DNA of 64,000 nucleotides from Candidatus Omnitrophota bacterium. Lineage in GTDB: Bacteria; Omnitrophota; Gorgyraeia; Zapsychrales; Fredricksoniimonadaceae. Shown piece after piece: positions 11,491 to 13,361 of this stretch. The notes under the pieces are model-generated. The model was not told the origin of the DNA. It worked only from the letters and a program-made list of their open reading frames with translations, and ran no database searches. Location of the stretch: NCBI GenBank assembly GCA_037131245.1, contig JBAXRK010000001.1, positions 152,385-216,384 of the forward strand, written 5' to 3'. The translations under genes were made by a program, and so were the position numbers. Every line of letters begins with the position of its first letter. Position 1 is the stretch's first letter.

Positions 11491-12327
11491 TTATGCCGCG
11501 ACCGGTTGTTTCGTTCCAGTCTTGTAATAATGGCCCCGGGCGCGAGCGCGGGTGTCCGCCAGCATCAGGCGGATCTCGTCCAAACTCTCCTTGGCCTTCT
11601 CCAGCTCATGCTGATAACGATCGCGCTCGGTGATGACGCTGCTAAGCTCATTATCGGACTTTTCCAGCTTGCCGGCGACGCTTTCCTTCTCGTCTTCCAG
11701 CAAAGAGATCTGGTGATGAAAACTCTGAATGGTTTTGTTCGCGCTGGAGAGCTCAAGCTCGATCTGCTCCACGCGGGAATCGCGGCTTTCGCATTCTTTT
11801 TCGAGCGCGGCCACTTTATTCTCGCCGTCCTTGATCAGCGCGTCACGCGCCTCAAGATCTTCCTCGAGCGACTTGATCTTGCCAACGGTATCGAGCCGTT
11901 CGTTCTCCAGGAACTCCAGCTCGCTGCTGAGCTCTTCCTGGGAAACCAGAAGGCCCTTCATCTCTTTAATTTTGGCTTCGGCCAGCCCGGCTTTTTCTTC
12001 AGCCTTGGCGACTTTTTCCTTAAGGTGATTGATCTCTTTTTCCTGGGCATCCTTCAGGCTGAAGGCCGCGTCCAGCTGCTTTTCCAGGTCGCCGATGATC
12101 TCAAAAACGCTCGCCTTCTCTTCGTCGGGAGACATCATGTACTTGGTGGCTTCCTTGACCTGCCTGACCGCTGTGCGAATGGAGCTTTTAGCTTCCACCG
12201 CCGGCGCTGCCGAGCCGGGCCGCGCTGAAGACGTCCGGAGTGTTGACTGCAAAAGAGGATTATCGATAAGCCTTCCCCTTCTTGAATCCGTGCCCCTGCC
12301 CGCGTTACCCTTTTTTTGATCTTCCAT
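11491..12327 (-). CDS. Coiled-coil protein with basic disordered N-terminus
   Basis: N-terminal 60 aa are R/S/G/A-rich. The centre is long heptad-like E/K/L sequence. Basic tail RARARGHYYKTGTKQ. Overlaps the ParA-like gene end by 23 nt. Confidence 0.7.
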   Translation of the reverse strand: MEDQKKGNAGRGTDSRRGRLIDNPLLQSTLRTSSARPGSAAPAVEAKSSIRTAVRQVKEATKYMMSPDEEKASVFEIIGDLEKQLDAAFSLKDAQEKEINHLKEKVAKAEEKAGLAEAKIKEMKGLLVSQEELSSELEFLENERLDTVGKIKSLEEDLEARDALIKDGENKVAALEKECESRDSRVEQIELELSSANKTIQSFHHQISLLEDEKESVAGKLEKSDNELSSVITERDRYQHELEKAKESLDEIRLMLADTRARARGHYYKTGTKQPVAA

Positions 12328-13063
12328 GCATGATCTCCTTGGCTAATTGCTGGTACGCTTCCGCGCCCTTAGATGTTTTGTCGTATTTCCATATCGGCAG
12401 GTGGGCATTGTGCGCTTCCTCGAGCTTGATGTTCTCGGGGATCATCGCCTTAAAAACCTTCTTGCCGAAATAATTACGGATAGCGTCGCGGGCCTCATTG
12501 GTGACCACGCGTTCGCGGTAGCGGGTAATGACCACGCCGGTAATATCAATGTCGGAACCGAGGCCTTCGCGGACATTCTCCACGATCTCCTCGAGCAATT
12601 TAATGCCTTTAAGGGAAAAGAATTCCGGGCAGATCGGCACCACCAGCTCTTCGCAGGAGGTGAGCGCGTTGACCGTCAGCAAACCAAGGGACGGCGGCGC
12701 GTCAACGATCATGTAATCGTATTTTAATTTGCGGGTATAGTGGAACAAAACTTTCTCGCGGCCGATATGCTCGTTGATGCGCAAAGAAGCGCCGGAAAGC
12801 TCGATATCACTGGGGACCACGTCGAAACCGAAAGCGTCTGAATGCTGGATGACGGAGTTAATGTCCATCTTGTCGACGATGACATTATAAATGTTGTATT
12901 CAAAGCGCTGATTGCCGAAAATGGCCGCCGTGGAGGAGTACTGGGGGTCCATGTCGAGCAGGACGACCTTCTTCCCCGCGCGCGCGAGTTCCGCCGCCAG
13001 GTTAAGGGCCGTGGTGGTCTTGGCAACGCCGCCTTTTTGGTTCGCTATGCAGATCCGTCTCAT
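12305..13063 (-). CDS. ParA/MinD-family P-loop ATPase
   Basis: Deviant Walker A NQKGGVAKTTTALNLA, then VLLDMDPQ and MIVDAPPSLG (Walker B region). 252 aa. Confidence 0.9.
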   Translation of the reverse strand: MRRICIANQKGGVAKTTTALNLAAELARAGKKVVLLDMDPQYSSTAAIFGNQRFEYNIYNVIVDKMDINSVIQHSDAFGFDVVPSDIELSGASLRINEHIGREKVLFHYTRKLKYDYMIVDAPPSLGLLTVNALTSCEELVVPICPEFFSLKGIKLLEEIVENVREGLGSDIDITGVVITRYRERVVTNEARDAIRNYFGKKVFKAMIPENIKLEEAHNAHLPIWKYDKTSKGAEAYQQLAKEIMHGRSKKG

Positions 13064-13067
13064 ATTT

Positions 13068-13361
13068 TCAGTTCGCTTTCTTCAATCTCAAAAAAGCATT
13101 GCTGTCGCTGAGCACCGAACCCGCCCAGAAGCAGACCGCGTTAACCATGGATTTGATCTTTTTCTCCACCGGCTTCGCTACCGGAACGATCTTCAGGACC
13201 GGAGCTTCAGCCTGCGCCTTGCGGATCTTTGACGCTGTCCGCTTCACGGCCTTTTTTGAAGAAACAGGCTTCGGGAACAACACCACTTTCGACGGCATGG
13301 CGGGCGAGTCGAATGCTTCGCTCGCCGCGCTTTTCTTTACTGGCTTTTTAGCTTTTGCCAT
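13068..13361 (-). CDS. Small lysine-rich basic protein
   Basis: 97-aa ORF MAKAKKPVKKSAAS..., low complexity K/P/A/V. Ends 5 nt before the ParA-like start. Confidence 0.5.
   Translation of the reverse strand: MAKAKKPVKKSAASEAFDSPAMPSKVVLFPKPVSSKKAVKRTASKIRKAQAEAPVLKIVPVAKPVEKKIKSMVNAVCFWAGSVLSDSNAFLRLKKAN

Follow-up and report, generated by a model that had tools for sequence, protein, structure and literature searches.

The 64,000-nucleotide (nt) stretch analyzed here, referred to as the window, comes from a Candidatus Omnitrophota bacterium (contig JBAXRK010000001.1, positions 152,385 to 216,384 of the forward strand) and contains a tightly packed block of genes built around a ParA ATPase and the coiled-coil protein encoded directly behind it. 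All genes of this block lie on the minus strand, and coordinates are positions within the window. Read in the direction of the genes, the central part consists of HEAT373 (13605–14726; 373 amino acids (aa); Pfam HEAT_2, 1.9e-19), followed after 45 nt by tm62 (13371–13559; 62 aa), after 9 nt by the Lys-rich K97 (13068–13361; 97 aa), after 4 nt by the ParA gene (12305–13063; 252 aa), then by CC278 (11491–12327; 278 aa), which overlaps it by 23 nt, and, 27 nt further on, by the actin-like gene Act1 (10471–11463; 330 aa), itself separated by 18 nt from a second one, Act2 (8929–10452; 507 aa). The gene anatomy described in the initial annotation, namely a 97-aa Lys-rich protein, an ATPase with the motif KGGVAKTT and a 278-aa protein, with two actin-like genes coming right after the three, was reproduced in full.

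The ParA protein matched the Pfam profiles AAA_31 (1e-48; 166 bits against a cut-off of 27) and CbiA (1e-27; 97 bits) and carries a deviant Walker A motif, NQKGGVAKTT, at residues 8–17 in which the signature Lys is kept. K10 (the signature Lys), K15 (Walker A), D39 (within DMDPQ) and D121 (Walker B) align with Soj structures, and R185 lines up with an Arg in T. thermophilus Soj that we take to be the counterpart of the DNA-binding R189 of B. subtilis Soj. Across 30 members of its clade (see below), NQKGGVAKTT, R181, R183 and R185 were invariant, and S43, C145-P146, F149, R181, E215, H218 and H221 were clade-specific. Among solved structures, the protein scored 172 bits (1.4e-49) with the ParA family protein 8ray, 167 bits (5.8e-48) with T. 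thermophilus Soj and 145 bits (2.9e-41) with H. pylori Soj, followed by MinD (61 bits), ParF (40 bits), the McdA structures 6non and 6noo (38.7 bits over residues 1–178) and MipZ (25.7 bits). By sequence, the ATPase is of Soj type, neither McdA-like nor MipZ-like, and membership of the McdA family, which the initial annotation had brought into play, was rejected on the strength of the 38.7 bits for McdA against 172 bits for Soj-type proteins.

Neither a ParB nor a parS site accompanies this ParA, as had been noted from the letters of the window at the outset. No ParB domain was present among the scanned open reading frames (ORFs) of the window, and a tblastn search of four ParB proteins against all of its frames found no ParB (best E-value 0.07); a weak 19-residue match (E 5.7) overlapped the region of the CC278 N-terminal peptide described below. 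The parS scan of the window returned two matches at three mismatches, against 1.09 expected by chance, neither of them near the genes, and the repeat search found no repeat array near the genes. The same four ParBs detected no ParB on eight Omnitrophota loci carrying the cassette, four of which were read to ±10 kb and the others to the contig end.

The gene directly behind parA is CC278. Its 23-nt overlap with parA recurs in six related loci (L001, L002, L094 and L097–L099; loci are given by number throughout), and a Shine-Dalgarno sequence, AAGGAG, lies within the 3′ end of parA (12335–12340, minus strand), 7 nt 5′ of the CC278 ATG. The overlap and the position of this site inside parA indicate that CC278 is translationally coupled to ParA; promoter and terminator scans stayed at chance level. 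Residues 1–64 of CC278 have a net charge of +7 and an AlphaFold2 (AF2) per-residue confidence (pLDDT) below 50, as for a disordered region, and residues 67–269 are modeled as one helix of ~200 residues with pLDDT >90. This model, which was built with 37 homologues, has a mean pLDDT of 80.9 and a pTM of 0.35, the latter being usual for a single long helix, and the basic disordered N-terminus and long coiled coil seen in the initial annotation are both borne out. Profile searches with CC278 gave coiled-coil-type matches only and no ParB domains. Homologues were found in 50 clusters, all of those with a source name being from Omnitrophota, and a search of metagenome contigs with the family alignment yielded 8 loci, mostly <2.2 kb.

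Three blocks are conserved within the CC278 family. The first, in Omnitrophota, consists of a run of basic residues at the N-terminus and, behind it, [KR]x[LKI]IDNPLLQSTL; the second is the start of the rod (SVFEIISDLEKQLDAAF) and the third a basic C-terminal end (LDEIRLMLADTRARAREHYYK), which in the window reads LDEIRLMLADTRARAR.HYYK. In CC278 itself the N-terminal peptide covers residues 15–32 (SRRGRLIDNPLLQSTLRT; 12232–12285, minus strand) and is a candidate ParA-contact/activation motif, with D22, N23 and L25 each at least 90% conserved within the family. Translation of the window in all six frames yields the DNPL peptide a single time. In activators of ParA/MinD ATPases, a disordered region bearing a positively charged N-terminal extension precedes a coiled-coil scaffold (PMC7993993), and CC278 is built in this way.

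A contig scan with the ParA alignment returned, among the matches listed, mostly distant Soj proteins with NQKGGVAK and one close Omnitrophota locus, a sample suited to the definition of partner classes and not to co-occurrence statistics. The ORF after ParA was read at 96 loci fetched from among the matches listed and fell into four N-terminal classes. GLGRGL-type ParB partners were present at no fewer than 23 of the 96 loci, including L017 and L057 from Omnitrophota; partners beginning with MREGPLAELF at at least 38–39 loci, from Thermoleophilia-type Actinomycetota; NPL[FL] partners at at least 14 of the 96 (the pattern also picked up L040, which in fact begins with LADSPFF); and small-protein partners with LADSPFF at a minimum of 6 Chloroflexota loci, L040 included. 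In the NPLF class, the peptide is found on three kinds of protein. Coiled-coil partners carry it in Omnitrophota, in Planctomycetota (L003, MTGIPKKKIDNPLF; L101, KRIDNPLF), in a Hydrogenedentes metagenome-assembled genome (MAG; L008, RRKSIDNPLF) and in a related contig (L100, KSKVIDNPLF), and partners of 144–165 aa in Bdellovibrionota (L009 and L010, which begin with NPLF) and in contig L096. The third kind are true ParBs of Planctomycetota, L095 (MATRLADNPLL) and L007 (MARAVIDNPLF), for which ParB_N and HTH_ParB both exceed the Pfam cut-offs. The coiled-coil partners of L003, L101, L008 and L100 keep IDNPLF, and IDNPL is the sole fully invariant block in the coiled-coil partners of three phyla, which are otherwise 23% identical.

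In a tree of 118 ParAs, all those with NPLF partners fell in one clade, recovered in 200 of 200 bootstraps (43 taxa), and every ParA of this clade with a readable downstream gene had a partner beginning with a basic run and (I)DNPL[FL]. The Omnitrophota clade linked to coiled coils received 99.5% bootstrap support and the Planctomycetota clade linked to ParB 97.5%, the relations between subclades being not resolved. The ParAs of L095 and L007 are the nearest ParB-coupled relatives, with 54–59% identity to the window ParA, so that the latter derives from a chromosomal-type lineage. The Soj proteins of the Omnitrophota loci L017 and L057 are only 37–40% identical to it and lie outside the NPLF clade, with the GLGRGL group; the Soj-ParB pair of L057 comes immediately after rnpA-like and yidC-like genes, and pyr genes follow the pair at each of the two loci. 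These comparisons place the window ParA, which has no ParB, in a separate clade of Soj origin. Clustering with chromosomal Soj, which the initial annotation had raised as the alternative to its own proposal, is seen in the type of the protein and not in its placement, which is apart from the ParB-coupled Soj of two Omnitrophota genomes, nor in its company, as the window has no ParB or parS.

The peptide classes GLGRGL, DNPLF, LADSPFF and REGPLAELF thus track ParA clades, as would be expected if the peptide is the element that contacts ParA, and the same peptide is carried by ParB in one lineage and by coiled coils elsewhere. Since the peptide class tracks the ParA clade and CC278 carries a peptide of ParB type, CC278 is taken to be the cognate adaptor of the window ParA and is likely to activate its ATPase, the binding step being inferred. 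These two peptide results provide a simple sequence handle for predicting the adaptors of orphan ParAs in uncultured phyla.

The two classes outside the GLGRGL and NPLF groups have features of their own. In Chloroflexota (Anaerolineae, Ardenticatenia; L019, L022, L032, L040, L047 and L052, with ParA at ~10001–10750 of the locus), the next gene encodes 110–170 aa and begins with M(K/T)KKSGLADSPFF, and the ParAs group in a clade to themselves. In Thermoleophilia, Gaiellales and Solirubrobacterales (Actinomycetota; L020, L021, L037, L043, L044, L061, L074 and ~28 more loci, again with ParA at ~10001–10750), a Soj-like ParA is followed by a protein of 390–560 aa beginning K(R)ASMREGPLAELFR, usually with overlapping stop and start codons. 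The FtsZ signature GGGTG[ST]G was present in 35 of 38 of these actinobacterial partners among the matches listed, so that an FtsZ with a ParA-contact-like N-terminal extension is encoded directly behind parA, in the usual place of ParB.

Upstream of ParA, the window contains three successive pairs of a HEAT gene and a small Lys-rich gene (13068–18959, minus strand): HEAT397 (17766–18959; Pfam HEAT_2) with the small basic p204 (17171–17785), HEAT631 (15257–17152; Pfam HEAT_2) with the small basic p102 (14952–15260), and HEAT373 with tm62 and K97. In HEAT373, an N-terminal half rich in Pro and Ala is followed by HEAT repeats and by the conserved tail AIEGWRYWWRD, an architecture like that of Mad23. 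At L008 and L027, both from Hydrogenedentes MAGs, and on the related contig L100, the gene immediately upstream of ParA likewise encodes a HEAT protein. The tm62 protein has a hydrophobic N-terminus resembling, by eye, a membrane helix and a conserved C-terminus, ESFYEGYAQA, and is kept in position and sequence in L001, L002, L006, L094, L097 and L099. In L100, three small hydrophobic genes, two of them with the tm62 C-terminal motif, precede HEAT393, ParA, CC381 and CC361.

K97 contains 19 Lys, has a pI of 10.6 and lacks the DNPL motif. Its homologues have a very basic body that varies and a motif at the C-terminus that is conserved; this motif reads VCFWAGSVLSD in the window, with close variants in L001 and L006 and looser ones in L002, L090 and L094; p102 ends with a similar motif, AAFCVGRVSG, giving the common form (A/V)(F/C)(C/F)xxG.V. 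K97 may pair with a HEAT protein, or bind DNA or membrane. An added Cys-rich segment, possibly a zinc-binding knuckle and absent from K97 of the window, is present in the homologues of L001 (7601–7954; CSVKGCRGRALRDGKCRKH) and of L090 upstream of ParA (CSFQGCRRMAVDDYNCRLH).

Downstream of CC278, Act1 and Act2 matched Pfam Volactin at 8.6e-79 and 4.9e-79, respectively, the latter over residues 181–500 behind a Pro-rich N-terminal extension of ~175 aa. Their scores with the NCBIfam MamK model were 26.7 and 19.8 bits, far below the cut-off of 400, so that both actins are classed as Mad28-type and not as MamK; no MamK-type actin turned up among the scanned ORFs of the window. Act1 has 2126 homologues, including ~60% identical proteins in Planctomycetota. 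The actin pair is kept in L001, L097, L098 and L099. The tail of the conserved block is formed by p231 (8273–8968, minus strand; 231 aa), with which Act2 overlaps, and CC371 (7148–8263, minus strand; 371 aa), a coiled-coil protein with coiled-coil-type matches only and a hydrophobic N-terminus resembling, by eye, a membrane anchor. Both follow the actin genes in L001, L097 and L099, and L098 has a match to p231 only.

Genes of mam type are located at 32.9–53.3 kb of the window and encode a MamE-like protease, three magnetochrome proteins, several cation diffusion facilitator (CDF) transporters, a MamA-like protein with tetratricopeptide repeats (TPR), a MamQ-like LemA protein and TauE proteins. 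The window is a magnetosome gene cluster, with the ParA block at its distal end as the cytoskeletal part; between the two lie an AcrB/OEP pair, FeoB, FecR, DtxR/FeoA and the three HEAT/small basic pairs. The best matches of the window proteins were 85–98% identical and came from MAGs of Candidatus Omnitrophica, many with HQL locus tags, which we take to denote magnetically enriched MAGs. L097 and L099 have the same order of genes (FeoB, FecR, DtxR, HEAT, p204, HEAT, p102, HEAT, tm62, the K-rich protein, ParA, coiled coil, two actins, p231, CC371 and sensor kinases), and L006 shares it up to the contig end, all three loci belonging to MAGs from magnetically enriched samples.

The closest architectural parallels come from ParA systems that work without ParB. 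In PomXYZ, PomZ is the ParA, PomX begins with a disordered region that bears an activating peptide at its N-terminus and continues as a coiled coil (PMC7993993), and PomY combines a coiled coil, six HEAT repeats and a disordered region (PMC10307791). The window module shares with it a nucleoid-type ParA ATPase and the lack of a ParB and of a centromere; CC278, with a short conserved basic peptide in its disordered N-terminus and a coiled-coil scaffold, resembles PomX in architecture, as does HEAT373, encoded two small genes upstream of ParA, PomY. HEAT373 differs from PomY in that its disordered Pro/Ala-rich part precedes the HEAT repeats and a clear coiled coil is missing, and the module as a whole differs from PomXYZ in its small membrane and basic proteins, its two actin-like genes (in Omnitrophota) and its magnetosome cluster setting. 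The initial annotation had instead pointed to McdAB, in which the partner encoded directly downstream likewise combines, in terms of architecture, a coiled coil with a disordered N-terminal region that is basic (PMC8262871, PMC7182216), and the proposed cargo is again an organelle and not DNA. This likeness stands for the ParA with its basic-disordered coiled-coil partner. It does not extend to the ATPase, which in the scores given above is much nearer to Soj than to McdA and which keeps the signature lysine, or to the partner, which at 278 aa includes a ~200-residue helix, and no carboxysome or microcompartment genes occur among the scanned ORFs of the window. In architecture, PomXYZ comes at least as close as McdAB. 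Chromosomal ParABS systems share with the window ParA the fold, the catalytic residues and the match of R185 to Soj, and the partner peptide is that of the L095 and L007 ParBs, whereas CC278 is without a ParB_N or helix-turn-helix (HTH) domain, parS is missing and the clade is apart from the GLGRGL-type Soj.

A further comparison concerns Mad29, a protein of ~300 aa to which an “AAA ATPase domain” is ascribed; this domain, it is said, “may provide energy” (PMC9840458, PMC11344931). The mad29 gene lies beside mad28 in Nitrospirota (PMC11344931, PMC9376291), in the order “mad29, mad28(I), mad28(II)” (PMC11344931), and at the end of the magnetosome cluster in Desulfovibrio FSS-1 (PMC7951924). Mad29 homologues were reported in all 13 eukaryote genomes examined, with one fish homologue classed as “transporter” (PMC8784154); both the spread through eukaryotes and this label fit a P-loop protein of the ParA/MinD/Get3 type. 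In the papers cited here Mad29 is described by its ATPase domain, without an assigned partner or mechanism. The window ParA is likewise a P-loop ATPase encoded beside mad28-type actins in a magnetosome cluster, and the HEAT and coiled-coil genes at the cluster edge recall mad23–mad28 (PMC9840458, PMC11344931, PMC12748827). Compared by description and gene position only, the window ParA gene is probably “mad29”; the search of representatives, the cluster names and a signature-residue screen of 149 representatives recognized no Mad29 (e.g., KJU82680.1, AMP41549.1). In D. magneticus RS-1, the chain is organized by a HEAT protein (Mad23), coiled-coil proteins (Mad25/26) and Mad28, and the study of this chain (Mad10, 20, 23, 25, 26, 28 and MamK) makes no mention of ParA, Mad29 or any ATPase (PMC12748827). 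One key paper draws an explicit contrast between the segregation of magnetosomes and that of organelles by ParA (PMC5059902).

Taken together, ParA and CC278 are best explained as a ParB-independent ATPase/adaptor pair whose likeliest cargo is the magnetosome chain scaffold, that is, the Mad23-like HEAT protein and the Mad28 filaments; we put the probability of this reading at roughly 55%. The gene anatomy, the clade and the presence of the same peptide on true ParBs are shown here; activation of the ATPase, binding to the nucleoid and the nature of the cargo are inferred by analogy with ParABS, PomXYZ and McdAB, from which the following mechanism is proposed. ATP-bound ParA dimers would coat the nucleoid, consistent with the retained catalytic residues and R185. 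The CC278 peptide, comprising the basic run and LIDNPLLQSTL on a disordered 64-residue arm, would dock on ParA and stimulate ATP hydrolysis, and the ~200-residue coiled-coil rod with its conserved basic C-terminal end would hold a large cargo. Repeated cycles of binding and release could then move or space this cargo along the nucleoid. The pair is part of a conserved module with tm62 and the HEAT protein, to which further HEAT/basic pairs and two Mad28-type actins are added in Omnitrophota. As cargo, the magnetosome chain is plausible rather than established, and it is the reading that the genomic surroundings make most appealing; in its favor are the location of the block in the cluster, the like order of genes in MAGs from magnetically enriched samples, the part played by Mad23, Mad25/26 and Mad28 in the RS-1 chain and the position of mad29 next to mad28 in Nitrospirota. 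For the ParA-based magnetosome partitioning put forward in the initial annotation, the missing ParB and parS, the separate clade, the coupled adaptor and the position in the cluster argue in favor, and the linkage to mam genes, which was not conserved, argues against.

Several points weigh against the proposed pair and its magnetosome cargo. The clade comes from a neighbor-joining tree, and its sample is biased toward the search pattern NQKGGVAK. Mad28-type actins are common in Planctomycetota, where they have housekeeping neighbors (including L004 and L005, 8001–9194) and no mam genes, which indicates that the Mad28/Volactin family is not restricted to magnetotactic bacteria. The conserved linkage to magnetosome clusters by which the initial annotation set store did not materialize, as four Omnitrophota loci and three of other phyla differ in their neighbors. 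In L098, the whole block from HEAT to p231 comes right after PBP2 and RodA and has no FeoB; in L001 (GWA2_45_18), the module, with one HEAT gene and the rest, follows NAPRTase; in L094, FeoB, DtxR, two HEAT genes, tm62, an ORF rich in K, ParA and the coiled coil lead on to RNase H, YebC and RuvCA, with no actin; and in L002, from the complete genome CP070807.1 (1.82 Mb), the module comes after glycine-cleavage genes and comprises a HEAT gene that is truncated, tm62, a hyper-basic protein, ParA and the coiled coil, again with no actin. Outside Omnitrophota, L008, L027 and L100 have HEAT, ParA and coiled coil (except the truncated L027), L100 with its tm62-like genes, and L003 and L101 have ParA, coiled coil and a giant response-regulator coiled-coil protein. 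The mam-type proteins of the window matched none of the compared loci, including the L100, L003 and L101 contigs. The module's occurrence outside Omnitrophota and its neighbors and make-up in L098 and L002 would suit a general positioning system, for instance a PomXYZ-like one acting on the division site or another large complex, with the proximity to mam genes reflecting lineage history, and the parallel of the architecture with PomZ, PomX and PomY (PMC7993993, PMC10307791) points the same way. We regard this explanation as less likely than the first but as a serious rival. The nearest mam-type gene of the window is itself ~20 kb from ParA and the loci were read with flanks of ±10 kb, so that a 10-kb flank cannot exclude a nearby cluster, and changed immediate neighbors alone are informative. 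The named sources of close homologues are all genomes with magnetosome clusters or magnetically enriched samples (HQL MAGs, nDJH6_bin5 and GWA2_45_18), the small size of the CC278 family fits a restricted magnetotactic lineage, and no ftsZ or other FtsZ link was seen near the module. For GWA2_45_18 a magnetosome cluster has been reported (PMC5955933). Metagenome 3300017963, the source of L100 (GC content 63%), has also yielded a MAG of a magnetotactic Hydrogenedentes member with a GC content of 60% (PMC7449369), a tie that is suggestive only.

Two other explanations keep the locus and reassign its parts. The small Lys-rich protein, which the initial annotation had placed beside the ATPase as a possible McdB-like partner, could be the adaptor, leaving CC278 as a structural chain protein only. 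K97 is strongly basic, its gene ends 4 nt before parA and the same position is taken by a small basic protein in all Omnitrophota loci examined, but its conserved part is a C-terminal hydrophobic motif and not an N-terminal peptide, p102 has the same motif after a different HEAT gene, and K97 bears no DNPL motif. Because, in addition, no K97 equivalent is found beside ParA in L100, L003, L101 and L008, where a partner bearing DNPLF is always present, K97 was rejected as the adaptor in favor of CC278, and we consider this assignment improbable. The remaining explanation, an ordinary chromosome-partitioning Soj whose ParB and parS lie outside the window, would account for the closest structural matches being chromosomal Soj proteins and for ParB-coupled relatives at 54–59% identity. 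It was rejected as very improbable in view of the lack of ParB and parS in 64 kb and of ParB on the eight Omnitrophota cassette loci, the occupation of the ParB position by the translationally coupled CC278, and the separate Soj-ParB pair that two Omnitrophota genomes have outside the clade.

Positioning and inheritance of magnetosome chains have so far been credited to MamK or, in deep-branching species, to Mad28 with coiled-coil and HEAT proteins. If the pair of ParA and CC278 does act on the chain scaffold, an in-cluster ParA with a dedicated adaptor would add a nucleoid-referenced layer of positioning, and the neglected mad29-type gene would gain a testable function. A more far-reaching and tentative proposal, which we consider less likely than not, is that the DNPLL peptide moved from ParB onto a coiled coil and hitched the magnetosome chain, through its HEAT and Mad28 scaffold, to a ParA/nucleoid ratchet. 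Type I (ParA) and type II (actin) partition machines in one operon would then serve the positioning and inheritance of an organelle, and peptide-swapping would define a family of ParA adaptors across Omnitrophota, Hydrogenedentes, Planctomycetota and Bdellovibrionota.

Some minor features of individual loci are also worth recording. L006 (JADFYJ010000024.1) and L099 (JADFYJ010000001.1) belong to one assembly, nDJH6bin5, which thus has two blocks running from FeoB, FecR, DtxR and HEAT to ParA; the two ParAs are each ~90% identical to that of the window, and the bin may hold a strain mixture or a real duplication. In L002 (8621–9885), the HEAT gene is reduced to its C-terminal tail and fused behind a lipoate-ligase-like N-terminus, and the K97 equivalent has 97 aa and is extremely K/R-rich, ParA and the coiled coil being intact. 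The giant proteins of L003 (9364–13251) and L101 (2501–7273) have 1295–1590 aa, with an N-terminal receiver domain and a very long coiled coil, which suggests that the module of Planctomycetota may be under phosphorelay control. In the window itself, the AcrB/OEP efflux pair and a BRO-N gene, the latter on the plus strand, stand at 25360–30034 and 32099–32929 between the mam-type genes and the FeoB/HEAT/ParA block. The BRO-N domain is familiar from phage and baculovirus genes, and these genes could be the sign of an insertion or show where the magnetosome cluster truly ends.

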